Below are positions 19,606-43,054 of a stretch of DNA of 43,054 nt, one piece after another. Numbering within the stretch: position 1 is the stretch's first letter; each line of letters opens with the position of its first letter. The translations under genes were made by a program, and so were the position numbers. A model generated the notes under the pieces. That model was given only the letters and a program-made list of their open reading frames with translations. It was not told where the DNA came from and searched no databases. Source of the DNA: an uncultured Candidatus Saccharibacteria bacterium (GTDB lineage: Bacteria; Patescibacteriota; Minisyncoccia; Phycocordibacterales; UBA9973); the NCBI GenBank assembly GCA_964500195.1, contig CAZCND010000002.1, forward strand, positions 1-43,054, written 5' to 3'.

Positions 19606-19790
19606 CCACAATAGAAAAACCCAAACGAGTTGGGTTTTCTATTGTGGACCCATCAGGCGAATCGTTAGATGCTTTAAAATATTATCTTTCTCGCTTTTGG
19701 GTGTATTATCAAAGCAATAAAAACCTTCAAAATATGCTTGAAAATGTTGAATAGATTGATTATTTATATTACACAGATAGAGTATTAGAT
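19606..19790 (-). repeat. R1: copy 1 of the ~150-nt cassette-separating module (core 19644-19790), with an adjacent long hairpin/terminator
   Basis: Shares long identical runs with R2-R4, for example tattatcaaagcaataaaaaccttcaaaatatgcttgaaaatgtt. Minus-strand TTGAAG-16-TGaTAATAC; 16-bp hairpin at 19606-19648. Confidence 0.85.
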
Positions 19791-20231: not shown

Positions 20232-20268
20232 CTCGCAACGAGAAAACTCGCTTGCGGGTTTTCTTTTT
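20232..20268 (+). terminator. Terminator of the 86-aa ORF; an inverted copy of the terminator module used by the other cassettes
   Basis: CGCAACGAG-AAAA-CTCG(C)TTGCG, then GGTTTTCTTTTT; homologous to 21284-21320 in reverse complement. Confidence 0.7.
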
Positions 20269-20295
20269 ATTTATTTAAAATTAAATTAATTATAC

Positions 20296-20500
20296 TGGTT
20301 CAATATCTTCCACATCTATACCAAAAATACCTTTACAAAATAAGGTTTAAAAAGTTGTGGACTTGTCAGGCAATACGTTAAGCGCCTTAAAAGATTACCT
20401 TTCTCACTTTTGGGTTTATTATCAAAGCAATAAAAACCTTCAAAATATGCTTGGGGATGTTAGTTTATAGTGTTTGTAGGTATCACAGTTAGGGTATTGA
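20296..20500 (-). repeat. R2: copy 2 of the module (core 20356-20500; left extension 20296-20355 is shared with R4)
   Basis: Aligned by eye to R1, R3 and R4. Minus-strand TTGAAG-16-TGaTAATAA, then ~85 nt, then AACCTTAT.../...AAGGT hairpin plus T-run. Confidence 0.85.
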
Positions 20501-20501
20501 A

Positions 20502-20546
20502 TAAAGAAAAGGAAATCACCTAAAAGATGATTTCCTTTAGGTGATT
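20502..20546 (-). terminator. Terminator of the 152-aa ORF
   Basis: TCACCTAAA...TTTAGGTGA 9-bp stem with flanking A/T runs. Confidence 0.7.
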
Positions 20547-21096: not shown

Positions 21097-21276
21097 AAAA
21101 ACCCTTATAAAATAAGGTTAAGATTAAAAGTGGACTCGTCAGGCAAATCGTTAAGTGCTTTACAACATTACCCTTCTCGCTTTTGGGTGTATTATCAAAG
21201 CAATAAAAACCTTCAAAATATGCTTGAAAATGTTGGGTAGTTTTATTATTTATACTACACAGATAGAGTATTAGAT
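21097..21276 (-). repeat. R3: copy 3 of the module (core 21130-21276); putative sRNA about 21098-21182
   Basis: Minus-strand TTGAAG-16-TGaTAATAC (plus 21189-21194 is the -10); AACCTTAT-TTTA-TAAGGGTT plus TTTTT at 21098-21120. Confidence 0.85.
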
Positions 21277-21283
21277 GTAGATA

Positions 21284-21320
21284 AAAAGAAAACCCGCAAG
21301 CGAGCTCTCTCGTTGCGGGG
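21284..21320 (-). terminator. Terminator of the 440-aa ORF (shared cassette terminator module)
   Basis: Minus strand CCCGCAACGAG-AGAG-CTCGCTTGCGGG, then TTTTCTTTTT. Confidence 0.75.
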
Positions 21321-22807: not shown

Positions 22808-23014
22808 TGGTTCAATATACCCCATATCTATACCAAAAAACCCTTATGGAATAAGGATGTTTGAATTGTGGACTCGTCAGACCAATCGTTAAGCGCCTTA
22901 AAAGACTACCTTTCTCGCTTTTGGGTATATTATCAAAGCAATAAAAACCTTCAAAATATGCTTGAAAATGTTTAATAGATTGATTATTTATACTACACAG
23001 GTAGAGTATTAGAT
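22808..23014 (-). repeat. R4: copy 4 of the module (core 22868-23014; extension 22808-22867 is shared with R2)
   Basis: Minus-strand TTGAAG-16-TGaTAATAT, then ~85 nt, then CCTTAT-TCC-ATAAGG plus TTTTTT. Confidence 0.85.
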
Positions 23015-23418: not shown

Positions 23419-23439
23419 CATTATTCTTAATAAGAATAA
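23419..23439. promoter_or_regulatory. Perfect 10-1-10 palindrome (operator-like) over the -10 region of the 107-aa ORF promoter
   Basis: ATTATTCTTA-A-TAAGAATAAT. Confidence 0.5.
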
Positions 23440-23472
23440 TACAATTATTATTAAAAAAGTCAAGCATAATTA

Positions 23473-23481
23473 TGCTATAAT
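23473..23481 (+). promoter_or_regulatory. Extended -10 promoter (TGcTATAAT) placing a start near 23488, the first G of element A
   Basis: The same TGCTATAAT motif precedes ftsH, ackA, ndk and the 86-aa ORF in this window. Confidence 0.55.
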
Positions 23482-23484
23482 GGA

Positions 23485-23670
23485 TGTGGAGATGGCGGGA
23501 ATCGGTCAGGAATAATTTTCTCGCCGTCGCTCGAAAATTTTCACGACCCTGGCTCGGCTATTTCGCCTGCTAGCGAAATTAAGCCTCCGCCTTTCGATTC
23601 CCGCACGGAAGACAAGCAGTTGTCTTCCTCATCTCCACATTATAAAAACCCCCCAAAAATGGGTTTTTTA
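23485..23670 (+). ncRNA. Element A: ~155-nt structured RNA/palindromic element whose ends copy the tmRNA acceptor and T-arm 3' end, followed by a terminator
   Basis: 5' TGTGGAGATGGCGGGAATCG pairs with CGATTCCCGC (23595-23604) and CATCTCCACA (23630-23639). Internal hairpins are GGTC...GACC, ATTTCGC-CTGCTA-GCGAAAT and GGAAGACA-AGCAGT-TGTCTTCC. AAAAACCC...GGGTTTTT terminator. Confidence 0.5.
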
Positions 23671-23675
23671 TAATG

Positions 23676-24057
23676 TGGAGATGGCGGGAATCGAACCCGC
23701 GTGCGGAGGGAACTCTTGTATAAATCTACATGTTTATTATGTTCATTTGGTTTAGATATTTACCCTAGAGAACATACAAAAAAAGTAAATACCGAGTTCT
23801 TAATTGTTAGAATCAATACCGAACAATTATTGATTCTTAACCCGATAAATTATGCCCATGATCTATATCGGATGTCTAGAAATGGACACTTGTTTGACCT
23901 AAATTTAGGCGAAAGCAAGAGCAAGGTTTCCAAAATAAGGAGACCCTACTTTAGCGACTTTGTTTACACTTAGTCTTTTAGAGGAAGTTTAAAAAGATTC
24001 CTCTACACTTTACATGCATATACAAGATGATTCTCTTCGTCGAAGCCGATCATCCCC
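23676..24057 (-). ncRNA. ssrA: tmRNA (SsrA), one-piece, CCA not encoded. Predicted tag AKVGSPYFGNLALAFA (resume GCT at 23955-23953, stop TAA at 23907-23905)
   Basis: 5' GGGGATGATCGGCTTCGACG; 3' GCGGGTTCGATTCCCGCCATCTCCA; acceptor stem with G3-U70; lies immediately downstream of smpB. Confidence 0.93.
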
Positions 24058-24115: not shown

Positions 24116-24559
24116 CTATCTTTTATATTCTCTTTCCATTTCTCTGTCCAAATCTCTTTTTTTGATTGTTTCTCTTTTATCAAAAGTCTTTTTCCCTTTG
24201 GCTATAGCGATTGAAACTTTAATATAAGGACCTTTACTATACAACGAAAGTGGCACAAGTGTCAATCCCTTAATGTCGTCTTTGTCTGCTAGTTTTTTAA
24301 TGTCTTTTTTGGATAAAAGTAATCGCCTTGTTCTTTCAGGGTCATGCGCTGGGTCAGTGTTGTTTGGCTGGTAGGGGGGTATGTTTAAGCCTATTATATA
24401 TGCTTCTCCTCCACGGATGACACAAAAAGTAGAGTTCAAGTTTCCTTGTCCTTTTCTAATAGATTTTACTTCATGGCCGAGAAGTTCTATACCCGCTTCA
24501 ACGGTTTCTTCTATCGTATAATTAAAATGGGCTTTTTTGTTTTCTAAATAAGTTACCAT
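24116..24559 (-). CDS. smpB: SsrA-binding protein SmpB
   Basis: NKKAHFNYTIEETVEAGIELLGHEVKSIRKG; basic C-terminal tail. Confidence 0.96.
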   Translation of the reverse strand: MVTYLENKKAHFNYTIEETVEAGIELLGHEVKSIRKGQGNLNSTFCVIRGGEAYIIGLNIPPYQPNNTDPAHDPERTRRLLLSKKDIKKLADKDDIKGLTLVPLSLYSKGPYIKVSIAIAKGKKTFDKRETIKKRDLDREMEREYKR

Positions 24560-24882: not shown

Positions 24883-24940
24883 TAATTAGGCCCTTTTTTC
24901 TTTCTTAAAATAAATCAAAATTATGCTATAATGTGCAAAT

Positions 24941-26969: not shown

Positions 26970-27043
26970 CCGCTTGTAGCTCAGTTGGTTAGAGCATCGA
27001 GCTTATACCTCGAGGGTCCCACGTTCGAGTCGTGGCAAGCGGA
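26970..27043 (+). tRNA. tRNA-Ile with genomically encoded UAU anticodon; CCA not encoded
   Basis: Hand-folded cloverleaf. Acceptor CCGCTTG/CAAGCGG; D arm GCTC-AGTTGGTTA-GAGC; anticodon arm TCGAG-CTTATAC-CTCGA; T arm CCACG-TTCGAGT-CGTGG; discriminator A. Confidence 0.85.
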
Positions 27044-27052
27044 CACGGTTTT

Positions 27053-31795: not shown

Positions 31796-31952
31796 TGCGG
31801 AATACTAGTCGGGATTTGGTCACGAGTTACTAAATTTTTTGCTCCAAGTATTCGCAAAAAACAAAGTACTCGCGACCCCGTCTCGTCAGTCTGAAAAGTT
31901 TTTCAAACTTTTTTCTGGCTACGACCTTCGAATCCCTGCGTCACTCTCCGCA
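31796..31952 (+). repeat. Element C: second member of the A/B/C structured palindromic family. The 3' end reads ...TTCGAATCCCTGCGTCACTCTCCGCA followed by CCA
   Basis: Same architecture as A: terminal stem TGCGGA/TCCGCA plus GGGATT/AATCCC; long GGTCACGAGTTACT...AGTACTCGCGACC hairpin enclosing TTTTTTGC...GCAAAAAA; GAAAAGTTT-TTC-AAACTTTT hairpin. No promoter seen. Confidence 0.5.
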
Positions 31953-32002
31953 CCACAAACAAAAAACAGCAATAATATTGCTATTTTTTGTTTGTGGTGC
32001 GG
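31948..32002. repeat. Near-perfect 27-1-27 palindrome that starts inside the 3' end of element C
   Basis: CCGCACCACAAACAAAAAACAGCAATA-A-TATTGCTATTTTTTGTTTGTGGTGCGG, one mismatch. Confidence 0.9.
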
Positions 32003-32102
32003 TGTATGTGAGTTAAGTACCCCCACGAGTGAGGCACCACAAGGGTATTCTAGCACATTTTGGAAATGAGAAATGAGGCATGAAGGTCGGGGTCTTGGTT
32101 CT

Positions 32103-32242
32103 GCAAATGTTACAAATGAGACACAAAACACGGTGTCTCGAAACTGTGTCTCATTTGCGAGATGTGATGAAAATACCAAGCCCCAAAAAGACAGATTTGG
32201 ATGAGACAAAACAAGACACGGAAAAGTGACTGTAACATTTGC
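32103..32242. repeat. Nested inverted repeats (MITE/IS-end-like remnant)
   Basis: GCAAATGTTACA (32103-32114) pairs with TGTAACATTTGC (32231-32242); CAAATGAGACAC (32113-32124) pairs with GTGTCTCATTTG (32146-32157). Confidence 0.7.
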
Positions 32243-32357
32243 CTTTACTGCACACATATTTTCTAATATGATTCCAAGTATACATGGACGTATCTGGGCT
32301 GAATCTGATGGAGTTTCTAAAGGAACAAAGGTTACTGTGGAGTTGCCGATAAAGTAG
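32205..32357 (+). pseudogene. C-terminal remnant of a sensor histidine kinase (end of the HATPase_c domain only)
   Basis: Translates to ...IFSNMIPSIHGRIWAESDGVSKGTKVTVELPIK*, the typical HK tail hGG.IwveS..G.Gt.f.f.LP. Upstream G1/G2 boxes and the H-box are absent. Confidence 0.65.
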
Positions 32358-32452
32358 AACCATTACGTTTACTTTGACTTATTTCATAAAAAGTTGTAAA
32401 TTAGATTCATATTTTGTGAGTTTATTGAATCATACATTCTATCAAAATAATT

Positions 32453-33463
32453 ATGAATATAAAAAAAATTTTACCTCCCAGGCTTGATAAGAGTAAGCTG
32501 ATAGGGATTATAGCTCCAGCAGACCCTGTTGCCGGTATTTGTCCAGAGGAGACAATTAAGCGTGGGTACGAATATCTAAAAAATAAGGGATTTTCTGTCA
32601 TCGAGGGACGTTCAGTAAAGCTACTTACACAAAAACATACTGCTGGAACAGCACTATCAAGAGTTGAGGATATTCATGATTTTGTAAAAAGAGAAGATGT
32701 TGGATGTATTATGGCCTTTTGGGGAGGTTTTAATACAAATCAATTGCTTGATAAATTGGATTATGACCTGATTAAAGCAAACCCGAAAATATTCATTGGA
32801 TACTCTGATGTTACAGCACTCACTACCGCGATAACCACTAAGACGGGATTAGTGACTTTTTCTGGGCCAGGAGTAATTTCCTTTGCTAAACCAGAACCTT
32901 TTGAATACACATGGAATTATTTTGAAAAAATATGCATTGATCCACAAGAGAATCTTATTATTGAACCATCTCCAAGCTATGCGGATGATTTATACTTTTT
33001 GCGTGAAGATGACAATCATAGAATCAAAAAAAATAATGACGGTTTAAAAGTATTTACATCAGGAAAAGCAACTGGTGAAATCGTTGCAGGTAATCTTCAG
33101 ACCCTACTAATTTTAAATGGTACAGAGTATTTGCCAGATCTTACTGGAAAGATCCTATTTATTGAAGAAGATGAGACAAGTACCCCAGCGCATGTCGACA
33201 GATTTATATATCAATGTAAACAATTAGGTTGGTTTAAAAAAATTGCAGGATTAGTTATTGGAAGATTTACAGAGCAGTCTAGTTTTTCTGAGAAAGATTC
33301 ATTAGAAGATATTTTAAAAGAGCACCTATTCGAAGCGAAATTTCCGATACTTTATAATGTTGATTTTGGGCATTCTGACCCATTAATCACTATTCCAAAC
33401 GGTGGTATTGCAACTATAGACACTGAAAATAAACGGATAATGTTTCAGCAATCGGTGATGTGA
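32453..33463 (+). CDS. S66-family serine peptidase (LD-carboxypeptidase / MccF-like)
   Basis: Ser-Glu-His triad context GYSDVTAL, FIEEDET, DFGHSDP; 336 aa. Confidence 0.85.
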   Translation: MNIKKILPPRLDKSKLIGIIAPADPVAGICPEETIKRGYEYLKNKGFSVIEGRSVKLLTQKHTAGTALSRVEDIHDFVKREDVGCIMAFWGGFNTNQLLDKLDYDLIKANPKIFIGYSDVTALTTAITTKTGLVTFSGPGVISFAKPEPFEYTWNYFEKICIDPQENLIIEPSPSYADDLYFLREDDNHRIKKNNDGLKVFTSGKATGEIVAGNLQTLLILNGTEYLPDLTGKILFIEEDETSTPAHVDRFIYQCKQLGWFKKIAGLVIGRFTEQSSFSEKDSLEDILKEHLFEAKFPILYNVDFGHSDPLITIPNGGIATIDTENKRIMFQQSVM

Positions 33464-33470
33464 TAAAAAT

Positions 33471-34790
33471 ATGTCCAACAATAAAAATCAATCAATAATA
33501 AAAAATATAGAAAAGGTATTGAATGATAAAGTTTCTTATAAAAAAGGAAACTTATTTCACATCGTTAGTCACGTCACAAAGAAAAGTAAGCAAATAAAAA
33601 GTCTTGTAAATAAAAATAAAACTCCTTTTTATGTTTTTGACCAACAAGCACTCGATAATTCCATAGATTTATTTCTGGAAGCATTTAAAAAAGAAATTCC
33701 TTCGTTTAAATCTTACTATGCTCTTAAAATAAACCATCATCCATTTATTATTCAGTGTGCGGTTGATAAAGGAATGGGACTTGATGTTGGAAGTCGTCGG
33801 GAAATCGATATTGCAATAAATGCAGGTTGTAAAGATATTCTTTACTTCAGTCCTGGTAAGACGAAAGATGATTTATTGTATGCAATAAAATATGTAGATG
33901 TTATTACTATTAATATAGATAGTTTTAACGAACTAAAAAAACTAGGTTCCCTAGCAAACAGTAAAAAGAAGCCTATTAAGGCTGGCATACGAATTCATAC
34001 TGACCAATATGGCGATTGGAAAAAATACGGGGTTCATATTAATGAACTAAAAACCTTCTTTAAAGAAGCTGAGAAATACCCCTTTATTGATCTTCAGGGT
34101 ATTCATTTCCACATGTCCAGAAATAAAGATGCTACATTTTATGAAAATACCATAAAAGAGTTGGGGGCTTACCTGAAGAAAAACTTTAATTCAAATGAGT
34201 TGCAAAAAATTAAATACATTGACTTTGGCGGCGGGTTTGAGGTTTATGAATCAGAAGGATACTATCCCTACAAGACACCGCAAGGCGGTATCATACAAAC
34301 AACTAATTCTTACACTGGAACACCGTCCATATTTGATGTTTCATATTACATTCGCGATGCTATTAAAATTGATGAGTATGCCAAAAAAATCGGGCAAGCA
34401 ATAAACGATTATCTCAAACCAATAGTAAGTGCCACGTATTACTCGGAACCTGGACGTATAATATGTAATAGCGCCATGTATATAGTACTGTCTGTTGCTG
34501 ATGCTAAAAACAAAGATAACGTCGTCTTGGACGGTGGAGTAAACATGGTCGGCTGGCAACGTTTCGAACATGAATATTTTCCTTTAGTAAACTTATCTTC
34601 TCCATCAAAAAAAGAAATTAAATGCAACATGTGGGGTAATCTTTGCACCACATGGGATACGTGGGGTTACTATTGCTATGCAAATAGAATACGAGAGGGA
34701 GATATTATTGTTGTCCCCAATCAGGGAGCGCTTACTTACTCACTAGCACAAAATTTTATTCAACCAATTCCGCCAGTTTATAAAATATAA
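33471..34790 (+). CDS. Fold-type III PLP-dependent decarboxylase (Orn/DAP/Arg decarboxylase family)
   Basis: PLP-Lys context YYALKIN, HFHMS, DFGGGF, SEPGRIICNSA, GNLCTTWD, GALTYSLAQNF. Confidence 0.85.
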   Translation: MSNNKNQSIIKNIEKVLNDKVSYKKGNLFHIVSHVTKKSKQIKSLVNKNKTPFYVFDQQALDNSIDLFLEAFKKEIPSFKSYYALKINHHPFIIQCAVDKGMGLDVGSRREIDIAINAGCKDILYFSPGKTKDDLLYAIKYVDVITINIDSFNELKKLGSLANSKKKPIKAGIRIHTDQYGDWKKYGVHINELKTFFKEAEKYPFIDLQGIHFHMSRNKDATFYENTIKELGAYLKKNFNSNELQKIKYIDFGGGFEVYESEGYYPYKTPQGGIIQTTNSYTGTPSIFDVSYYIRDAIKIDEYAKKIGQAINDYLKPIVSATYYSEPGRIICNSAMYIVLSVADAKNKDNVVLDGGVNMVGWQRFEHEYFPLVNLSSPSKKEIKCNMWGNLCTTWDTWGYYCYANRIREGDIIVVPNQGALTYSLAQNFIQPIPPVYKI

Positions 34791-34798
34791 TCAAAAAT

Positions 34799-35620
34799 AT
34801 GAAAAAAGAACTTATTACACCAGAATATATTAAGGGTTTATCTTATACGGATTTCGTGGGACTAATTAATCAGTGGAATGTATTGCCAGGTTCACACGTC
34901 ACATTATCGAAATGGACATGTTTTTCTGGGTTAAATAAAAATTCAAGACTTTTGGAAGTTGCTTGTACTACTGGTTTTTCATCTCGCGAACTCGCACTTC
35001 TCTCAGGCTGTAGCGGTGAAGGATTTGACCTTTCAGAAAAATCTATCAAAATGGCAGACTACAACAAGGAACAATATGCACCCAAAATTGATTTTTCATA
35101 TTCTGTAGCCGATGGATATAAATATAAATCTGATAAACCATTTACTCACATAGCAGTTGGTGCCTCTCTTGGTTTTTTTCCTGATCCAGCAAAAATGCTA
35201 GAAAGGTGCATCAGCATGCTTGAGGATGGTGGACACATTCTCGCTTCTCCGTTTTATGTGACAAAACCATTACCTCAAGCACTAGTTAAAAGAGCACAGA
35301 GAGTGTTCGATATCACTCCAACCGGGATTTCTTACAAAGAAATTATGAAATCGTACAACAAGCTTGAAGTGATTTTTGAAGAGCGGAACAGCTTAGTTCA
35401 AGAGACCAAGGAGGAGCTTGATTACTATTGCAAGTGCACCATAGACCGTGCATGCAAAATGCTTGATATCACGGATAAAAAGGTATACGAGGCTATGTAT
35501 AAAAGGCTTTACGAAGTAAAAAAGATGTCAAACGACCTACGTCCTTACCAGATGTACAGTATACTTGTCTTAAGGTACAGAAAGGCTATATATCCAAATA
35601 GATTTGTTGAGTTGTTTTAA
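34799..35620 (+). CDS. Class I SAM-dependent methyltransferase-fold protein
   Basis: Motif I LLEVACTTGFSS; acidic loop GFDLSEKSI; motif IV-like IAVGASLGFF. Confidence 0.7.
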   Translation: MKKELITPEYIKGLSYTDFVGLINQWNVLPGSHVTLSKWTCFSGLNKNSRLLEVACTTGFSSRELALLSGCSGEGFDLSEKSIKMADYNKEQYAPKIDFSYSVADGYKYKSDKPFTHIAVGASLGFFPDPAKMLERCISMLEDGGHILASPFYVTKPLPQALVKRAQRVFDITPTGISYKEIMKSYNKLEVIFEERNSLVQETKEELDYYCKCTIDRACKMLDITDKKVYEAMYKRLYEVKKMSNDLRPYQMYSILVLRYRKAIYPNRFVELF

Positions 35621-35624
35621 AAAC

Positions 35625-36143
35625 ATGATACTAACTGGAAGCAAAATTAAAGATGAAATAAAATCTGGCGACATCGTCATTGAGCCATTTTGCAATGAAC
35701 AAGTTAATCCAAACAGTTACAATTATCGACTTGGTTCTACTATAAAAGTTTTTAACGGATTCGACGGCGACAAGGCTAATTTTAAAGAGATAAAAATACC
35801 AAAAGACGGTTATGTTTTAGAGCCAAGGAAAATGTATCTTGCGACCACCAAAGAAGTAATTGGCAGTTCAAAGTATGCAATGTCCCTTATCGGCAGAAGC
35901 TCGATGGGTAGGTACGGTCTTTTCTTGCAAGTGTCAGCAAACCTTGGACATACTACTTCAAAACATAAATGGACTTTAGAAATTGTAGCTGCAAGGCCAA
36001 TAAAACTATATCCTGGCATGATAATCGGACAAGTTTCATTTTGGAAAAATTATGGCACAGTTAAAAAATATAATGGCAAATACGGTCATTTAAACCATCC
36101 TCAGGAATCATTTGTTCCCATAACTCAATACCAAAAAATATGA
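35625..36143 (+). CDS. dcd: dCTP deaminase family protein, paralog 1, canonical catalytic residues (ATG at 35625; the track start 35604 overlaps the upstream gene)
   Basis: GRSSMGRYG (Ser/Arg), WTLEI (catalytic Glu), YPGMIIGQVSF. Confidence 0.8.
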   Translation: MILTGSKIKDEIKSGDIVIEPFCNEQVNPNSYNYRLGSTIKVFNGFDGDKANFKEIKIPKDGYVLEPRKMYLATTKEVIGSSKYAMSLIGRSSMGRYGLFLQVSANLGHTTSKHKWTLEIVAARPIKLYPGMIIGQVSFWKNYGTVKKYNGKYGHLNHPQESFVPITQYQKI

Positions 36144-36679
36144 TACTAACAGGTAAAAAAATAATTGAGGAGTTTAAAAAAGGAAAAATTGATATTTCTC
36201 CTTTTGATAAGAAGAGAATAACGACAAACTCTTATGACTTATCCCTAGGACATAATATTGTTCGATACAAAACTGGTGTAATTGACCCAAAATGTAAACC
36301 CCAGCACGAAGAGATAATTATACCTGAAGAAGGTTTGGTGCTTGAGGCTGGAGATTTTGTACTAGGTCATTCAAGCGAGCGTATCGGCAGTGATTTTTAT
36401 GTTCCTATTATACATGGAAAATCTGGTACAGCTAGAATGGGATTGTTCGTACATGTCACTGCTGATTTAATAGATATTGGTTCGCACGGCGTCACAACCT
36501 TTCAACTGTATGCTACTCTTCCAGTTCGATTGTATCCAGGAATGCTTATTGCTCAAGTTAGCTTCTGGCTTCCTTTAGGGGATATCGTTTTATACAAAGG
36601 AAAGTATCAGAATAGCACTGGACCGCTACCATCTTTAACATATAAAGATTTCAAATACGATCTTTTTAAGAAGAAATAA
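36140..36679 (+). CDS. dCTP deaminase family protein, paralog 2, catalytic Glu replaced by Gln; ATGA overlap with paralog 1
   Basis: GKSGTARMG, TTFQL aligned to WTLEI, YPGMLIAQVSF; same MILTG.KI N-terminus as paralog 1. Confidence 0.75.
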   Translation: MILTGKKIIEEFKKGKIDISPFDKKRITTNSYDLSLGHNIVRYKTGVIDPKCKPQHEEIIIPEEGLVLEAGDFVLGHSSERIGSDFYVPIIHGKSGTARMGLFVHVTADLIDIGSHGVTTFQLYATLPVRLYPGMLIAQVSFWLPLGDIVLYKGKYQNSTGPLPSLTYKDFKYDLFKKK

Positions 36680-36772
36680 GATTTTCGATTTCGGGTTGAC
36701 AAAGTAACTATTTTATATTAGTTTGTCGGTAGTACTGTTCGTTAACAATCAACCAAATTAAGGAGGTGTATC

Positions 36773-38221
36773 ATGGCAAGAAAAAGTGAAAAGAAGAGGA
36801 CGAAAGCCCTCGAAATTGATCCACTTGCGTATCGCCGTGAGGCACCAAGAGGATCAGTTGAAGTTTGTGACCTAGACAGAGTACTCCATGGAGAAAAGAT
36901 CACCGTTGTTGGGAGGCTTATGCTTTCTGACAATACAGGTGAAATTTCCAAACTTGGAGTATTTGGCACACTGGATGGAAAGGAAGTTCTTACTCTCGAG
37001 AGAATCGAGGGGAATGGGCTATCAATTCCTGCATTCCTCATGCGTACACCAGAAAACATCGAGATAATGAACTCCGTTATCCACTACGGAGACGTCGTGA
37101 TGTTGGAGGGTGTAAAGCTCTGCATTTCAGGGGAAGATGTAGTTCTTGGAAACGGTATCAAGTTGCTTTCCAAAGCAACGGGTGATGTTTATGACAGCAA
37201 CGTTGATTTTCGTAAGAGATCAAATTTGTATGATCACAGACATCTTCAGTTGATTCAAAACCAAGGAAAGATTCTGCACTTTCGGAGATGCTCGATAGTA
37301 TTCCGCGCAATAAGGCAATTCCTATACAAGGAGGGGTATGATGAACTAAGCATGACTTTGCTTCAGAAAAACTTTGAAGCGGGTCTGGCTGATCCATTCG
37401 TAACACACGTTGCCCAACATGACAGGGATATGTATCTGAGATTGACATCAGAGCTGTTTCTCCGAAAATTGATGGTTGCTGGATTCTCGAAGGTATTTGA
37501 GATCGGTAAATCATTCAGAAATCAAGGGGCCACAGCCGACATGCTTCCTCAGTTTACAATTCTTGAACTGTATCGTGCGTATGCCAGCAGAGAAGAGATA
37601 GAAAACCTAGCAAAGAACATGATCTGCGAAGTTCTTGTTCAATTGTACGGGAGTCCGTCAATTCCCACTGCCAAAGGAGAGATAGATTGCTCGGGAGACT
37701 GGCCATTGTATGATTTTAAGGAAGAAATCGAGAAGTGTACAGGCTTAAGATATGACGAATCACGTCCTGTCGAAGAGTTGGTACACATTTTGGACAAGGC
37801 GGAAATTGCTCATCCTGCAAAGGTGAACAAATATACTGTGGCTACTGCCCTGTACTGCCACGTGATGTCCCACATCACGGGCCCCGCTTTCCTGAGGAAT
37901 CTGCCAGCCGCTCAATCTCCGCTTTTCAAGGTAAACGATGATGGGTCGACCGTTGATGAAACTCTTCTTGTTATTAACGGGATGCTTGTCGCTGACCTTG
38001 TTAATCCAGAGCGTGATCCTCGCCTTATCAGACAGCACATGGAGGAACAATTGACTTACCGCAAGGAAAGTCAAAACGATGGTGTTAACGAAGACATCAT
38101 CAGTGCAATGAAGTTCGGTCTACCTCCATGTAGAGGTATTGGAATGGGATTGGAGCGTCTTCTTATGCTTCTGCTAAACACGGAGGACATAAGAGATGTG
38201 GAACTCTTCCCTGTATTTTGA
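36773..38221 (+). CDS. Divergent class IIb aminoacyl-tRNA synthetase paralog, LysRS-like, with an N-terminal OB-fold region
   Basis: Motif 2 FRNQGATADMLPQFTILELYRAY (LysRS consensus fRNEG...HNPEFT..E.Y.AY); motif 3 GIGMGLERLLMLLL..IRDVELFP; AAGGAGGTG SD. Confidence 0.8.
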   Translation: MARKSEKKRTKALEIDPLAYRREAPRGSVEVCDLDRVLHGEKITVVGRLMLSDNTGEISKLGVFGTLDGKEVLTLERIEGNGLSIPAFLMRTPENIEIMNSVIHYGDVVMLEGVKLCISGEDVVLGNGIKLLSKATGDVYDSNVDFRKRSNLYDHRHLQLIQNQGKILHFRRCSIVFRAIRQFLYKEGYDELSMTLLQKNFEAGLADPFVTHVAQHDRDMYLRLTSELFLRKLMVAGFSKVFEIGKSFRNQGATADMLPQFTILELYRAYASREEIENLAKNMICEVLVQLYGSPSIPTAKGEIDCSGDWPLYDFKEEIEKCTGLRYDESRPVEELVHILDKAEIAHPAKVNKYTVATALYCHVMSHITGPAFLRNLPAAQSPLFKVNDDGSTVDETLLVINGMLVADLVNPERDPRLIRQHMEEQLTYRKESQNDGVNEDIISAMKFGLPPCRGIGMGLERLLMLLLNTEDIRDVELFPVF

Positions 38222-38241
38222 GATGAGGTTTATAACCACGC

Positions 38242-38273
38242 ACCCCGTGTCAGTTTCTGACACGGGGTTTTTG
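38242..38273 (+). terminator. Terminator of the LysRS-like gene
   Basis: ACCCCGTGTCAG-TTT-CTGACACGGGGT plus TTTTT. Confidence 0.8.
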
Positions 38274-38278
38274 TTTAT

Positions 38279-38850
38279 CAGGAAACCCCGCCCGCTTTTC
38301 TGCCTGAGCGTGCGGGGATGAATGGAACCATATACGTATCGCATTCTGATGTGATACGCTTGGTTGCATGAGAATCCGAAGCTTGAATCACTCTGTCTAC
38401 CAAACTCAATATCACCTCGTTTGGGGAACGTTGTATCGTAGAAAATATCTGAAAGAATATGTAAAGAATGAATTTGTCACTCACATCTACACTGTCATCA
38501 AAAAATATCCCACACTCCATATACATAGTATTAATGCAAACGATGACCATGTGCACCTTCAGATTGAAATACCACCAAGCGTCGCTATTGCTGCCGTCGT
38601 GAGGCGTTTGAAAGTGGAGACAAGTATTTACCTTAAGAAACGATTTAAATTTATACGTGAAATGTATATCGACGGCAGCATATGGAGTGTTGGGTATTTT
38701 GTCTCGACAATCGGACTGAATGAGGCGGTAATCGAAAAATATATTGCAAACCAAAATCGAAAAGACAAGGGTGTAACCACTAGCTTCGGGTTCTCATGAG
38801 ATCCAAGGAAACCCCGTCCATCTCTCGTCTGCGAGAGTGTACGGGGAGGA
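38279..38850 (+). mobile_element. IS200/IS605-family insertion sequence (tnpA only) with subterminal hairpins
   Basis: LE hairpin CCCCGCCCGC...GCGTGCGGGG (38286-38317) and RE hairpin CCCCGTCCATCTCTCG-TCTG-CGAGAGTGTACGGGG (38812-38846). Both are preceded by the identical GGAAACCCCG. Confidence 0.8.
38368..38799 (+). CDS. tnpA: IS200/IS605 Y1 (HUH) transposase TnpA
   Basis: YHLVWGTLYRRKYL, HUH motif DDHVHLQI, catalytic Tyr context WSVGYFVSTIG, EKYIANQ. Confidence 0.92.
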   Translation: MRIRSLNHSVYQTQYHLVWGTLYRRKYLKEYVKNEFVTHIYTVIKKYPTLHIHSINANDDHVHLQIEIPPSVAIAAVVRRLKVETSIYLKKRFKFIREMYIDGSIWSVGYFVSTIGLNEAVIEKYIANQNRKDKGVTTSFGFS

Positions 38851-38864
38851 CGTCCATTATATAT

Positions 38865-38900
38865 AAAAAAGGGGCTACAGACAGTGTCCATAGCCCCTTG
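38865..38900 (-). terminator. Terminator of the PheRS-like gene
   Basis: Minus strand AAGGGGCTA...TAGCCCCTT plus TTTTT. Confidence 0.75.
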
Positions 38901-38924
38901 GAACGATTCACCACAGATAGGACA

Positions 38925-40040
38925 TTACATGTACCCTCGATCTCCTTGATTTAGCTTAGGGTAGAGGCGCTGCATCCACCCATTGACCATCGCCTTCGGC
39001 AAAGAACTTTCCAGTGAACGGAATGTCAGTGTTACCACAACATTCTTTTGGTCTGGTCTGATACCGAGGTTTAGTCTCGCCTTTTCTGGAAGTTTATCAT
39101 AGGAAATTTCGGAGTACTCGATCTTCTCTATGAAAACGGCGTCTTGTCCCAGCTCATCGCGAATTTCTTCGCAGATGTCTTCTTCTGTTTTCTCAACAGA
39201 AGTAGAATACGACAGCACCCTTTTCGTTGCAGGCTGATCAGAGACGGTGACGAATTTTTCAAGATTCGCCATCTGACGCTTTATTCGAGGATCATCCGAT
39301 CTCAGAACACGAATGTCATCGATGCCTTTGATGATCATGACGAGTCGATCAAGACCCATACCCAGAGCGAGCCCTGAATACTCTTCAGGATCGAGACCAG
39401 CGTTTTTGAGAACAGTCGGATGGGCTTCGCCACATTCGAGAACTTCGAGCCACGAACCGTTAACAAAAACTTCCACCTCGAGACCCCGCATCGTGTAAGG
39501 ATGTTCAACTTCATTCGCTCGATATTTACATCCTGGAACAACACATTCCAGAATAGTTTCAACCAAGTGAATCAGGTCTGATCGGACGAAACGAGGTGAC
39601 CCCTGTTTTATTCGCCAGACATCCATTTGATGAGGCTCACCGCAATGAGTTTTATCGACAACGTCGCGTCGATAACACATTCCAGGCAAGACAACGACAG
39701 TATCGCCGATACCATTTTGAGAGGCTTTTTTGAGCCAACTCGGAATAGCTGACGAAGTGTGGGTACGCAAGACAGTATCTTCCGTAACATACCTCGTATA
39801 GCGAGAAGACCGCCCTGCATTATCTAACGGGAAGAGAAGGTCGTCGAAGTTTTCTTTTGATGAGACTTCCGGGTTCGAACGAACTTCCTCGACAACTGCT
39901 CCAGCATAGGATTTCTCCAGTGCTCGTCTTACGTTACCAACGACAATGTTGATGGCATGGATCCCATTCTTGGGATCAGTGAGGTCTGGGAGGGCTATAG
40001 AGGCCATCAGACGCTCTGGTGACATAACTTCTTTTTTCAT
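38925..40040 (-). CDS. Divergent class IIc aaRS paralog: PheRS-alpha-like catalytic core fused to a C-terminal FDX-ACB-like domain, with no N-terminal coiled coil
   Basis: NFDDLLFPLDNAGR, VLRTHTSS, motif 2 PGMCYRRDVVDKTHCGEPHQMDVW, motif 3 GLALGMGLDRLVMI. The C-terminal ~95 aa ends VVVTLTFRSLESSLPKAMVNGWMQRLYPKL, which resembles ferredoxin-fold anticodon-binding domains. Confidence 0.75.
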   Translation of the reverse strand: MKKEVMSPERLMASIALPDLTDPKNGIHAINIVVGNVRRALEKSYAGAVVEEVRSNPEVSSKENFDDLLFPLDNAGRSSRYTRYVTEDTVLRTHTSSAIPSWLKKASQNGIGDTVVVLPGMCYRRDVVDKTHCGEPHQMDVWRIKQGSPRFVRSDLIHLVETILECVVPGCKYRANEVEHPYTMRGLEVEVFVNGSWLEVLECGEAHPTVLKNAGLDPEEYSGLALGMGLDRLVMIIKGIDDIRVLRSDDPRIKRQMANLEKFVTVSDQPATKRVLSYSTSVEKTEEDICEEIRDELGQDAVFIEKIEYSEISYDKLPEKARLNLGIRPDQKNVVVTLTFRSLESSLPKAMVNGWMQRLYPKLNQGDRGYM

Positions 40041-40306
40041 GACCGTGTCTCCTTTTCTGTCTGTGCCGTGTCATTACTGACGTGGCTAGGTTTGAGTGAT
40101 ACTAACTTCCGATACTCCTCTAAGTGATCCCTACGCAGGACCGCTAGCCATCGGCCAGCTTTTGACTTATCAGAGTTGTTTGTAACCGCAAAAATCATCT
40201 CAAATGCGGCCGATGGGCTACTACTCTCATCCACTAAAGAGACGATTTTTTCGTCACTTAGTATGGAGGAGCATCGTGCCCTGATTTCTTGAGCTGATCT
40301 GATCAT
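40037..40306 (-). CDS. Hypothetical 89-aa protein, translationally coupled (ATGA overlap) to the PheRS-like gene; ATG at 40306 preferred over the track start 40360
   Basis: AGGAGG 9 nt upstream of the ATG at 40306; its stop overlaps the downstream start; no family recognised. Confidence 0.6.
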   Translation of the reverse strand: MIRSAQEIRARCSSILSDEKIVSLVDESSSPSAAFEMIFAVTNNSDKSKAGRWLAVLRRDHLEEYRKLVSLKPSHVSNDTAQTEKETRS

Positions 40307-40563
40307 AGCTTGATACCTCCTATCTTTAGTATTGTTAAAGAACAACACCCACAGGAACATCCTATAGGTACCCCATCATACATATTATTAATACAAATGT
40401 CAATCTTTTTTGGGGCACATTAGCCAATCAGAGGTTACCAACACCTACCACTAAGGGCGCTCTGGACTCCTGAGAGGTGTTGCGTCATTCCTTGTGTTGT
40501 ATGACAAACGCAACAACACAAGCGCCATTAGGGACTACGGCCAAAGTAGTAGTCCCCGTAAAG

Positions 40564-41829
40564 ATGAAATACTGCCTCTATGCGAGAAAGTCGACAGAGT
40601 CAGAAGAAAGACAAGTCCTTTCAATAGATAGCCAAATCAGCGAGATGCTCCAATTAGCCGATCGTGAGGGGCTTGAGGTGGTCACCATGAAGCGTGAAAG
40701 CCATAGTGCTAAAGAGACTGGTCAGAGACCAGTATTTAACGAAATGGTTGAAGAACTCAAACAAGAGAAGTTCAATGCAATCCTCACTTGGGCACCTGAT
40801 CGTATTTCAAGAAATGCAGGCGACCTTGGAAAAATAGTAGATCTAATGGATTCAGGTAAACTACATATAATAAGAACCTTCGGACAAACTTTTGGAAATA
40901 ATCCAAATGAGAAATTCCTTCTCATGATTCTAGGCTCACAAGCAAAACTAGAAAATGATAATCGAGGTATCAACGTGAAGCGAGGATTACGAACAAGAGT
41001 AGAGATGGGATTATGGCCTGGCATGGCACCACTTGGATATTTAAACCAAAAATTAATGGACAGGAAGTGTCAAATAGTAATTGATCCAGATAGAGCACCA
41101 ATCATTAAGAAAATGTTTGAGAAAGTAGTGTATGAACATTGGAGTGGTAGAAAGGTATATAACTGGTTACGATTTGATTTAAATTTCTATACTCGAGGAA
41201 ATAAACCCCTGACACTCTCAGGGGTTTATCGTATTTTTAATATGCCAATCTATTATGGACCATTTGAATATCCTAGAAATTCTGATAACTGGTATCAAGG
41301 AAGTCATACACCAATAATTACTCAAGAGTTATTTGAAAAAGCTCAAGCACAATTAAAGAGAGATAGGATTGTAAGAGAAAATAGAGAGTTCGCATTCACT
41401 AAACTGTTCACCTGCGGCATGTGCGGGTCAGGCATCACCGCCCAAGAAAAGTACAAAATACTCAAGGACGGTACGAACGCCAAGTACATCTACTATTCAT
41501 GCTCCAAGGCAAAGGACCGTGATTGCAAGAACAAATACATCCGAGAAGAGGAATTGATCGACGAACTCTTCAAGATTATCGACCAGGTGAATATCAACGA
41601 ACTTGGGATGCGCATGAAACTTGAGGAAGAGATTAAACGATTCAACCGACTACAGCGATTGGCAACCAAGGGTACACCAAAATACAATATCAACGAGGAT
41701 GAAATTAATACCCGGGAATACGCCAAGTATGTACTCAAGGAAGGCACTGCGCTCGAAAAACGAGAGCTTCTAGGACATCTAAGATCACGATTACTACTGG
41801 AAGACAAGAAGATTAGCCTGGTTCAGTAA
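40564..41829 (+). CDS. Large serine recombinase (resolvase domain, recombinase domain, zinc ribbon, coiled coil); ATG at 40564 preferred over 40477
   Basis: N-terminus MKYCLYARKSTESEERQ (catalytic Ser context), AILTWAPDRISRN, CGMCGS...YYSCSKAKDRDCKNKY zinc ribbon. Confidence 0.88.
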   Translation: MKYCLYARKSTESEERQVLSIDSQISEMLQLADREGLEVVTMKRESHSAKETGQRPVFNEMVEELKQEKFNAILTWAPDRISRNAGDLGKIVDLMDSGKLHIIRTFGQTFGNNPNEKFLLMILGSQAKLENDNRGINVKRGLRTRVEMGLWPGMAPLGYLNQKLMDRKCQIVIDPDRAPIIKKMFEKVVYEHWSGRKVYNWLRFDLNFYTRGNKPLTLSGVYRIFNMPIYYGPFEYPRNSDNWYQGSHTPIITQELFEKAQAQLKRDRIVRENREFAFTKLFTCGMCGSGITAQEKYKILKDGTNAKYIYYSCSKAKDRDCKNKYIREEELIDELFKIIDQVNINELGMRMKLEEEIKRFNRLQRLATKGTPKYNINEDEINTREYAKYVLKEGTALEKRELLGHLRSRLLLEDKKISLVQ

Positions 41830-41859
41830 ATTGGTGAAAAATGGTAGAATGGGTTTACT

Positions 41860-42429
41860 ATGGAACAAAACTCTACTAAAAAAGTATTCCTTATCCACGG
41901 GTTTCAAGGTACGCCAAATGGTGGATGGCGTTCTTATCTTATGAGCGAACTGGAGAAGCAGGATATCTACGCCTGTTCTCTTTCAATGCCTAAACCAGAC
42001 GAGCCAATTCTTTCTGAATGGTTAGAAGAAAACAAAAGACATATCGACAGAAATCCAAACGATGATATTTATCTAGTTGGTCACAGTCTAGGAGGAACTG
42101 CCATTCTTAGATATCTAGAGCAATTTAATTCTTCAAATCTTAAGGGGGTGGTTATTGCATCTGCTCCATGCCATCAAAATATCAATAGCAAGATTGTTGA
42201 TTTTCTTCGCACAGATTTTAACTGGGAGGTAATGAAGAATAAGGTTGAGCATGTGGTCGTTATTCATGGTGACAATGACCCGAATGTTCCAGTCTCAGAT
42301 GCAGAAGAGACAAGTAATCAATTAAATGGAAAACTTGTCCTTATTCCAGACGGAAAACATTTGAACGGTTCAGCAGGATTTACTGAGTTACCTGAAGCAT
42401 TATCAGCACTAACTGAAATGATGAAATAA
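41860..42429 (+). CDS. Alpha/beta serine hydrolase, YdeN/RBBP9-like
   Basis: VFLIHGFQG, nucleophile elbow GHSLGG, VVVIHGDNDPNVP. Confidence 0.75.
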   Translation: MEQNSTKKVFLIHGFQGTPNGGWRSYLMSELEKQDIYACSLSMPKPDEPILSEWLEENKRHIDRNPNDDIYLVGHSLGGTAILRYLEQFNSSNLKGVVIASAPCHQNINSKIVDFLRTDFNWEVMKNKVEHVVVIHGDNDPNVPVSDAEETSNQLNGKLVLIPDGKHLNGSAGFTELPEALSALTEMMK

Positions 42430-42430
42430 T

Positions 42431-42826
42431 ATGAAAACAATACTTGTAGATGCAGTAAATACAACAATCATCAAAGATGAGTCCGGATCATTCGTGCAAT
42501 TCAAAGAACTTTTTGATTTACTTGAAACCTATTCAAACCCAAAACTTATTGTTACCAATGCTAACGACAATCAACTAATTGAATTTGGACTCAATGATGT
42601 TCCTTATCAAGTATTCACTATGAAGCATAGTCCTGATAAACCAGATCCTGTTTACTTCAAGACACTTCTTGAACAACACAGCTGGCAACCGACTGATGTC
42701 ATTTATTTTGAACACAATCCTGATGCAGTGAAATCAGCTGAGTTAGTTGGCATTACTTCCTATCATTACGATAAGGATAAGAAAGATCTAACAGGATTGA
42801 AACAGTTTCTTGATCAGAATAGTTAA
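42431..42826 (+). CDS. Small HAD-like hydrolase-fold protein with a degenerate motif I
   Basis: N-terminal ILVDAVNT in place of DxDxT; VTNAND; short 131-aa length. Confidence 0.4.
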   Translation: MKTILVDAVNTTIIKDESGSFVQFKELFDLLETYSNPKLIVTNANDNQLIEFGLNDVPYQVFTMKHSPDKPDPVYFKTLLEQHSWQPTDVIYFEHNPDAVKSAELVGITSYHYDKDKKDLTGLKQFLDQNS

Positions 42827-42828
42827 AA

Positions 42829-42868
42829 ACAAAAAGAGCGACATTGTCGCTCTTTTTGTTTTATATCA
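42829..42868 (+). terminator. Intrinsic terminator after the HAD-like gene
   Basis: AAAAAGAGCGAC-ATT-GTCGCTCTTTTT. Confidence 0.8.
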
Positions 42869-42928
42869 ACCTTTGTGGGTCGCACGACATCCATAGGGAT
42901 ATAGGTCGCGAAACTACCAGGTTGTCAA

Positions 42929-43054
42929 TGCGGAGACGCAGGGATTCGGTCACTCTCGTGGATATTTTGCCTTGCTTCGCTTGCAAAATATCTCACTCCC
43001 TCGACCCCCACTCGGGCTGGCCGCTTCGCGGACTTCGTCAGCCCTCGGTTCGAA
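42929..43054 (+). repeat. Element B: third member of the A/B/C family, truncated by the window end at ...GGTTCGAA
   Basis: 5' TGCGGAGACGCAGGGATTCG-GTCAC; GATATTTTGC...GCAAAATATC hairpin; CTCGACCCCC; GGCTG...CAGCC hairpin; then CCTCGGTTCGAA. Collinear with A and C. Confidence 0.5.

Follow-up and report, generated by a model that had tools for sequence, protein, structure and literature searches.

Structured repeat units carrying copies of neighbouring tRNA and tmRNA gene ends in a patescibacterial chromosome

The 43,054-nt stretch of DNA studied here (contig CAZCND010000002.1, positions 1 to 43,054; hereafter the window) is a 33%-GC piece of chromosome from a member of the Patescibacteria (Paceibacteria/Nomurabacteria-like), encoding SecY, IF3, L20, FtsH, RecG and SmpB. 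The SmpB loci closest to that of the window were found in Paceibacterota metagenome-assembled genomes (MAGs). Three related structured units, A, C and B, are present in it, and unit A adjoins the gene of the transfer-messenger RNA (tmRNA; ssrA), located at 23673..24057 on the minus strand (ARAGORN; Rfam RF00023, 131 bits), with smpB at 24116–24559 on the same strand. The initial annotation had described the three elements, at these places, as a family of one architecture, and both statements were confirmed. The motif CGACCCNNNCTCG was found exactly three times on the plus strand, at 23544, 31873 and 43002, a count for which 0.37 was expected by chance and which was reached in none of 100 shuffles, and a covariance model of the units (R1) recovered relatives in other genomes. 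The folding energies were −73.9 kcal/mol for unit A and −51.7 kcal/mol for unit C, with z values against shuffles of −8.7 and −6.0, respectively; the terminal stem was perfect in A and degenerate in C.

Unit A belongs to the tmRNA gene and is intact. Its parts are described on the minus strand, that of the tmRNA gene, which is referred to here as tRNA-sense; the opposite strand, plus in the window, on which the elements had initially been read, is referred to as antisense. The distal arm (23484..23504) repeats the tmRNA 3' end directly and exactly over 21 nt, from T-loop C56 to 3–4 nt beyond the discriminator, and ATGTGGAGATGGCGGGAATCG is accordingly found both at 23484–23504 and at 23673–23693 (plus-strand coordinates), the second copy being the last 21 nt of the tmRNA gene. 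Since this gene is present at 23673–24057, what had been taken for the 5' end of an element is the direct repeat of the tmRNA end. The distal arm is joined by a GGTC/GACC helix with hairpin hp1 (23504..23548), flanked by an A and a C that correspond to an invariant G·U on tRNA-sense, and by a 3-bp helix, GGC/GCC, with an internal loop and hairpin hp2 (23551..23591). The gene-proximal arm consists of two parts, the T part CGATTCCCGC (23595..23604), an inverted copy of half of the tmRNA T loop and of the T-stem 3' strand, and the acceptor part (23630..23640; CATCTCCACAT on the plus strand), which is the 5' acceptor-like strand on tRNA-sense. The two are split by hp3 (23605..23629), a 9-bp hairpin with the loop GCAG (CUGC on tRNA-sense), so that the 3' end of the unit in the antisense orientation is an inverted copy of the tmRNA end broken by a 25-nt hairpin. 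The spacer between unit and gene (23641..23672), itself a hairpin featuring an A-tract, a T-tract and CCC/GGG, lies at the middle of a palindrome with 23-nt arms (23630–23652 / 23661–23683, 96% complementary) reaching into both acceptor strands. A 'permuted tmRNA' match at A (30 bits, below threshold) was rejected as a product of this palindrome.

Unit C (31796..31955, minus strand; 112.5 bits with R1) is an older unit with tRNA-Ser-type arms, of which the distal one is decayed and the proximal one reads CGAATCCCTGCGTCACTCTCCGCACCA. Its core was 84% identical to units adjoining tRNA-Ser(GCT) in L024 (L-numbers are the labels of the compared loci), and the ACTC of unit C, decay-like in appearance, was yet found to be conserved in the L024 homologue. 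Beside unit C lies a palindrome with 27-nt arms (31948..32002), the equivalent of the spacer hairpin, at which no tRNA gene (ARAGORN) and no Rfam family was found. The observation that C is followed by CCA was literally true (CCGCACCA, 31948–31955), but the stretch in question is an arm of this palindrome. Unit B (42928..43054, minus strand; 78.8 bits with R1) is truncated by the window end and belongs to another subtype, in which the tRNA-Ser-type arms are perfect. The distal arm, ATGCGGAGACGCAGGGATTCG, corresponds in reverse complement to a tRNA-Ser-like 3' end, and B-type copies are complete in L004 and L024. The window also has a tRNA-Ile gene of its own (26970–27044, anticodon TAT), beside which no unit was found.

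The layout of unit A is that of the family. In the antisense orientation a unit starts with the distal arm (reverse complement of the neighbour's 3' end, ending in ...TCG), followed by GTCAC-hp1-CGACCCC and NN-CTCG-hp2-TCCG-NN, then by TTTCGAWTCC with the T-stem 3' strand, often by hp3 with its GCAG loop, and by the acceptor 3' strand and the spacer hairpin, after which the tRNA gene stands on the other strand. On tRNA-sense the order is gene, spacer hairpin, proximal arm, three-way junction and distal arm. The proximal arm is then made of the complement of the acceptor 3' strand, often the CUGC-loop hairpin, and the complement of the T-stem 3' strand plus half a T loop; the conserved junction consists of UCGAAA, the 3-bp helix, the internal loop, hp2, GGGGUCG, hp1 and GUGAC; and the distal arm is a direct copy of the gene 3' end from T-loop position 56 on. 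Some units have an additional small hairpin, hp0, in the distal arm (e.g., GCG-AGTA-CGC).

That pairing in the units is kept by compensatory change, as had been proposed from the three window copies, was borne out in a 33-sequence alignment, with 500 shuffles and pairing partners slid by 1–3 columns as controls. Paired cells amounted to 96.3%, compared with 25–42% in the slid controls, and the covariation score was 0.585, compared with 0.169 in the shuffles, none of which scored as high. The helices are thus preserved by compensatory substitutions above the controls, as is usual for structured RNAs. The 3-bp helix next to hp2 was found as GCC/GGC (18), GGC/GCC (11), GAC/GTC (8) and AGC/GCT (3), and also as ACC/GGT and GTC/GAC, and the GGTC/GACC helix is replaced by GGCC/GGCC in L024 and L002. 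The loop of hp3 is kept with different stems in L002, L007, L012, L014, L025, L032, L033 and many metagenome units. In the spacers of L127, L141, L147, L186 and L209, conserved GCAAC...GGC flanks were observed around a covarying stem, and from these flanks the spacer hairpin seems to be part of the element and not of the tRNA gene.

A strict motif search followed by R1, the covariance search that the initial annotation had called for, revealed the same architecture in many Paceibacteria loci, beside tmRNA, tRNA-Ser and tRNA-Ile genes. Units were found after tmRNA genes in L002, L004, L005, L012, L013, L014, L026, L032 and L033, after tRNA-Ser genes in L023 and in L024, the latter with three in tandem, and after tRNA-Ile(TAT) in L020 and L025, and a weak R1 match was obtained beside the tRNA-Ser gene of L019 (16.3 bits, E = 0.083). 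Other subtypes that follow the same logic occur after tmRNA in L007, L009, L016, L018 and L021 and after tRNA-Ile in L005 and L012. Tandem arrays were present in L021, L024, L122, L135 and L171, and presence is patchy between close relatives, with no unit in L003 and two in L002. The units are 150–200 nt long and devoid of open reading frames (ORFs). In a metagenome scan with the pattern TCGGTCAC-N22-52-CGACCCCNNCTCG, at least 120 stretches matched, and at least 69 of the units had a tRNA gene 30–265 nt away on the strand opposite to the antisense orientation, with the tRNA 3' end facing the unit. Among the scan matches listed, the specificities of the tRNA genes covered 17 amino acids (all but Asn, Gln and Tyr) as well as tmRNA, and the contigs ranged from 31 to 64% GC. 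Of 38 further SmpB loci (L042–L081, mostly labelled as other phyla), 37 gave no match with R1. The exception was L043 (positions 1–260; PEXN01000057.1), from a MAG labelled Elusimicrobia, with a complete unit of the same layout (51.9 bits) in which the distal arm duplicates, over 21 nt, the end of a tRNA gene truncated by the contig start; as the only match among these 38 loci, it would reflect either a wider distribution or mis-binning. In L026, two units downstream of the tmRNA gene are separated by a 329-aa ORF without Pfam match (11145–12134), and a terminator and a decayed fragment resembling a tmRNA end precede the second of them.

The Rfam search, likewise suggested at the outset, showed that no Rfam 15 family matches any unit tested; with gathering and E-value thresholds, only tmRNA, tRNA and chance miRNA-like hairpins were obtained, and a known RNA family was therefore rejected as an explanation. 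A phage or viral origin was rejected as well, the 16 pattern matches on viral contigs being treated as chance (best 13.9 bits, E = 0.48, judged with R1 at a threshold of E < 0.1). No description of the unit family was found in literature searches. The units are a large, undescribed family of structured elements of about 150–200 nt that trail tRNA and tmRNA genes in genomes of Patescibacteria type. The adjoining tmRNA gene, the size of the family and the copying of the local gene by the arms had been missed in the initial annotation.

Among the scan matches listed, the distal arm was a perfect 19–21-nt match to the neighbouring gene in 37 of 69 units, and most of the other distal arms differed by indels or by an inserted hp0. 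The direct repeat always starts at the T-loop CG (position 56), whereas its far end varies: among the matches listed it was located at the tRNA 3' end in 15 cases, 1–7 nt beyond it in 18 and 10–29 nt beyond it in 4, an overrun that far exceeds chance extension. CCA was present in the repeat only where the gene encodes CCA, and the repeat of unit A includes trailer bases and turns the G3·U70 of tmRNA into A-U. Because trailer bases are included and CCA is found only if gene-encoded, the arms are DNA-level copies of the local gene, and neither a selected mimic nor a copy of mature tRNA. The finding that the termini reproduce an acceptor stem and a T stem was thus correct, but their interpretation as a tRNA/tmRNA mimic was not, since they reproduce without change the 3' end of the neighbour, trailer bases included, and the complement of that end. 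A copy of mature tRNA, by the logic of retroviral primer-binding sites, was rejected for the same two reasons, and a decayed inverted whole tRNA or tmRNA was rejected because similarity past the T loop extends over 5–7 nt, which is not above shuffles. The identity of the core was found to be unrelated to that of the tRNA. A Ser-GCT unit and an Ala-GGC unit were 93% identical in their cores, and a Trp and an Arg unit 90%; the core of window unit B matches an L004 unit with tmRNA arms, and a C-type core with tmRNA arms occurs in L033. In L112, the proximal arm has a foreign T stem, and a 26-nt direct repeat matches the new tRNA-Arg. Within the window, no recombinase, transposase or reverse transcriptase was found except the serine recombinase of the island described below, and the 132 ORFs within 2.5 kb of units comprised only housekeeping families by Pfam, with no recombinase, transposase or reverse transcriptase enriched. 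A partner gene beside the units was therefore rejected, none having emerged from either the clustering of downstream ORFs or the Pfam profile of these 132 neighbours.

Several lines of evidence point to tRNA-sense (the minus strand for A, B and C) as the structured strand, the opposite of the one initially read. Among 66 distinct units, 171 A·C pairs, which are G·U on tRNA-sense, were counted on the antisense strand, compared with 40 G·T pairs; in an earlier sample of 17 units, the wobble excess had been due only to one conserved A/C position. In all sequences, the pair closing the GGTC helix is G·U on tRNA-sense, and the variable pair that comes next is either G-C (18) or G·U (10). The tRNA-sense strand folded better by about 8 kcal/mol in 18 of 18 units. 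Additionally, a tRNA topology is obtained only on this strand, in the order 5' acceptor strand, hp3 branch, T-stem 5' strand, insert, and T-stem and acceptor 3' strands, with the large insert standing in place of the T loop.

Signals for transcription in the antisense orientation were not a property of the family. Unit A had been presented as an independent transcription unit with a promoter and a terminator. The promoter element TGCTATAAT is indeed present on the plus strand (23473–23481), as is the hairpin (23630–23683), but the supposed terminator is the centre of the palindrome. Promoter-like sequences occur on both strands at 23436..23481, and the minus-strand one, TTGACT-16-TATTAT, serves the next gene, which runs from 23393 down to 23070. 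No promoter was conserved in either orientation in the family-wide check. Any −10-like hexamer (5/6 to TATAAT, within 50 nt) was found in the antisense orientation in 19 of 65 units, at scattered positions and never with a TG extension, and a terminator at the unit end in 14 of 66, so the claim of independent transcription could not be upheld. In 44 of the 66 units there was no terminator between the tRNA and the unit. It was also observed that ATTATGCTATAATG occurs both upstream of unit A (23468–23482) and 8 nt before the ftsH start codon (24919–24933), which suggests, from these two sites, that the organism may use a common extended −10 promoter and near-leaderless mRNAs.

The closest known analogue of the units is the 178-bp repeat of the E. 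coli tyrT operon (rtT/RttR RNA, Rfam RF00391). Like the units, which were found directly 3' of a tRNA gene and ending in its last ~19 nt, the tyrT/tyrV repeats immediately follow the 3' end of a tRNA gene, in tandem and on the same strand, end in the last 19 nt of tRNA-Tyr (T loop to CCA) and have an internal GGGGAAGGAT complementary to the T-stem 3' strand. In the E. coli K-12 locus (L218; NC_000913.3, 1286300–1287900), each rttR/tyrT repeat was found to contain GGGGAAGGAT, the complement of ATCCTTCCCC in the terminal tRNA-Tyr copy, so that the E. coli repeat can form a T-stem-like closing helix as in the units. The rtT RNA is reportedly released from the tRNA transcript. No homology to RtT was detected in A or C at E values up to 10, nor in six other loci at E values up to 0.1, and R1 found nothing in L218. 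In rtT, unlike in the units, the copy starts at A58 instead of C56, the repeats are confined to one tRNA-Tyr operon and a tpr ORF is carried, whereas the units are associated with nearly all tRNA types and tmRNA and share a conserved three-way-junction core.

Other systems resemble the units in part. Integrase-type islands at tRNA and tmRNA genes share with them the block of identity from the T loop to the 3' end, the intact gene and the arrays at one tRNA gene, and the flanking direct repeat of the tRNA 3' part is present in the units (21 nt in A; the 37 perfect matches mentioned above); however, the units are 150–200 bp long, encode no integrase or recombinase (no ORF), have covarying hairpins and an extra inverted copy, and their arms re-match each tRNA. 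Miniature inverted-repeat transposable elements (MITEs) and palindromic repeats such as Correia, RUP, ERIC and REPIN are, like the units, small, ORF-less, multi-copy and rich in hairpins, with possible co-transcription. The terminal inverted repeats of the units are not intrinsic but copied from the target, no short fixed duplication is made (19–26 nt or more, compared with 2–10), and one tRNA position is targeted. The omega RNAs of IS200/IS605-type TnpB and IscB similarly place a conserved scaffold beside ~20 nt equal to the local flank or target, whereas the 'guide' of the units duplicates the adjacent gene end; no TnpB, IscB or TnpA was found nearby, the corresponding Pfam families being absent from the window ORFs and the 132 neighbours, no Rfam match was obtained, and a duplication is present, unlike in PATE-type elements. 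Among tRNA-like RNAs (the Y-RNA-like YrlA, mascRNA and viral 3' structures), an acceptor/T-stem stack serves as a handle for tRNA enzymes, and the units have such a stack. They differ in having a three-way junction for the T loop, no D or anticodon domain, a sequence copied from the neighbour and no Ro/Rsr context. The tRNA body is replaced by the 9-bp hairpin with a 4-nt loop, and the T loop by the junction. By RF00023 only the adjacent gene scores as tmRNA, unit A having no match beyond the shared 3' end, and no tRNA was called at A, B or C by RF00005 or ARAGORN.

In their behaviour, the units resemble a small mobile element and not an independent gene for an antisense RNA. The explanation that we favour, with a probability of about one half, is that A, B and C each represent one copy of a non-autonomous, multi-copy element that resides at tRNA and tmRNA gene 3' ends and duplicates about 20 nt of its target. 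The second proposal of the initial annotation, a small mobile element targeting T loops, was close to the data. The element would insert at the T loop of a tRNA or tmRNA gene through staggered breaks, producing a duplication of 19–26 nt from position 56 to just past the gene, with the gene left intact and the element between both copies, and it would bring its own spacer hairpin. The proximal arm would later be matched to the new neighbour, either because pairing is selected for or by templated quasi-palindrome correction across the stem of the unit itself and the spacer hairpin. The unit would be transcribed as a tRNA trailer, folding into an acceptor/T-like helix that closes the three-way junction, and its RNA would probably be released by tRNA-processing enzymes, by analogy with rtT RNA and the E. 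coli tyrT transcript. We infer the insertion event, the mobilising enzyme and the RNA.

Several observations weigh against this explanation. The wobble asymmetry cannot separate RNA from single-stranded DNA (ssDNA) of the same strand; the helices are almost entirely Watson-Crick, and the sequence GCGAAGC, which forms a very stable mini-hairpin in DNA, is found at some hairpin tips, so the structured form could be ssDNA instead of RNA. About a third of the units, A included, stand behind a terminator-like hairpin as seen from the tRNA, which would limit co-transcription, and, for unit A, a good extended −10 is found on the opposite strand. For tRNA-Ile and tRNA-Ser, no empty/filled orthologous pair was found, the flanks not being conserved. 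To our knowledge, no bacterial enzyme makes a 19–26-nt duplication with one end fixed in the T loop. In an unlikely version of the mobile-element idea, the units are the bacterial counterpart of retroposons resembling short interspersed elements (SINEs) or of RNA-targeted insertion elements. The tRNA 3' copy at the end of the tRNA-sense transcript would pair with a tRNA gene on its template strand, copying of the element would be primed at a nick across from T-loop position 56, and a second nick at a variable point past the gene would create the 19–26-nt duplication, the enzyme being encoded elsewhere in the genome. Such a process would account for one fixed and one variable boundary, for a distal arm that is always the target's own sequence, for arrays at occupied sites and for structure selected on the tRNA-sense strand.

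The model of the initial annotation makes each unit an independent small RNA gene that folds as a minihelix. In this case it would stand opposite to the tRNA strand and convergent with the tRNA gene, and its 5' 20 nt, which are antisense to the 3' end of the tRNA, could serve as a guide or sponge for it. The model draws on TGCTATAAT being 3 nt upstream of the repeat of A and on the same motif before ftsH. It would also fit the many spacers that are bidirectional terminators (A-tract, hairpin and T-tract), as convergent units would have, and the guide-plus-scaffold-like arrangement of a scaffold beside an arm that is a perfect 19–21-nt complement of the tRNA in the 37 listed units. We consider it unlikely, because the wobble counts (171 to 40) favour the other strand, the invariant pair is A·C on the antisense strand, the branch topology there is wrong for a tRNA mimic, and the family has neither a conserved −10 nor, beyond the 14 units noted, a terminator end; moreover, in L158 and L201 the arm directly adjoins a terminator belonging to the upstream gene, and no promoter could fit in between. 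A different possibility is that the units are recombination sites acting as double-stranded DNA, namely leftover or minimal attP or attL-attR pairs of T-loop-targeting islands, or landing pads for these. The units have a direct repeat that reaches from the T loop to the 3' end, and such a repeat is said to be the classic signature of integration into tRNA genes. Serine-recombinase islands abut the tmRNA 3' end in L011, L023, L031 and L037, where a large serine recombinase is encoded in convergent orientation to the tmRNA gene, by an ORF that extends over the tmRNA 3' end; in L023 this ORF heads an island of ~7 kb that displaces the unit array. L020 shares the conserved sequence downstream of the tmRNA gene, as judged at the sequence level. 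Islands or ORFs separate units from the tRNA gene or from each other in L023 and L026, a weak match in L016 (17.7 bits, E = 0.03) lies ~5 kb from the tmRNA gene, and the window has an island with a large serine recombinase between C and B. Set against this, compensatory change in four hairpins and a strand bias are unexpected for protein-binding double-stranded DNA, a carried att copy could not fit a new tRNA whereas cores 93% identical have locally matched arms, no recombinase was enriched near units, and the length of the repeat varies at its outer end; this origin is also improbable.

The same hairpins could be recognised in tRNA-sense ssDNA, the units being non-autonomous transposons of IS200/IS605-PATE or REPIN type mobilised by an HUH or other transposase encoded elsewhere. 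Their almost all-Watson-Crick helices with strand-specific tolerance of G·T, the GCGAAGC-type tips on the tRNA-sense strand, and their small size, copy number, lack of ORFs and site-specific insertion agree with this. It is nevertheless quite unlikely, given that known HUH elements insert beside a 4–5-nt motif without target duplication, that no Y1/HUH transposase was found in the window or the 132 neighbouring ORFs, and that the tRNA-like topology is left unexplained. That topology, together with the position directly after tRNA genes, would be expected of host-beneficial pseudo-tRNAs, in which an RNase P or RNase Z site frees the 3' trailer of the upstream tRNA and similarity is maintained by gene conversion. 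The 44 of 66 units without a terminator between tRNA and unit, and the reported processing of rtT from a tRNA transcript, would suit such a role. Units are, however, patchy even in close relatives, with the tRNA-Ile of the window having none, the arm pairs with trailer or CCA, which is unfavourable for RNase P, and decayed copies such as C are common, so that a pseudo-tRNA role appears quite improbable as well.

The insert of ~11 kb between units C and B (32003..42927) differs in composition from its surroundings, with up to 47% GC compared with 33% elsewhere. It encodes a large serine recombinase (40477–41829), two class II aminoacyl-tRNA synthetase paralogues (36773–38221 and 38925–40040), two dCTP-deaminase-like genes, a methyltransferase and hydrolases. 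In relatives, a tRNA-Ser(GCT)/tRNA-Ser pair is found at the syntenic distance from smpB where the window has C, the insert and B; from this position, the stretch is probably an integrated island, and it seems to have split a unit array. The island is context outside the units and the synthetase paralogues are its cargo, and no link between these paralogues and the units, as once proposed, was found. A tRNA-Ser gene should be present just past 43054 on the minus strand, with unit B closing there with ...TTCGAATCCCTGCGTC... In the relatives L005, L007, L008, L012–L015, L018, L019 and L023, ARAGORN called a tRNA-Ser with anticodon ACT beside tRNA-Ser(GCT), the two usually standing back-to-back on opposite strands; this anticodon and the TAT of tRNA-Ile are both unusual for bacteria.

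Further observations concern other parts of the window. A direct repeat of ~155 nt is present in four copies (19636–19790, 20349–20503, 21122–21276 and 22860–23014), 63–89% identical to the reference copy and each located between small minus-strand ORFs without Pfam match, and the same region has a 40-nt inverted repeat (20234–20273 / 21278–21317); no Rfam match was obtained for these repeats. A protein of 921 aa, encoded amid housekeeping genes (10990–13755), gave weak matches to TrwB_AAD_bind and TraG-D_C, which are coupling-protein domains of type IV secretion.

What is new about the units is their breadth, their conserved core and their target-copied arms, rtT being one old precedent. They would constitute a large unannotated structured class, absent from Rfam, that follows many tRNA genes in a major bacterial radiation. 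The tRNA 3' fragments that they contain resemble att scars, which affects the annotation of tRNA genes and genomic islands, and the position of unit B at the window end suggests that units may break assemblies. The old, unexplained rtT repeats of E. coli gain a much broader counterpart. If the target-duplication mechanism is true, the units would imply an as yet undescribed enzyme able to read the T loop in tRNA genes, and possibly a new route of site-specific insertion.

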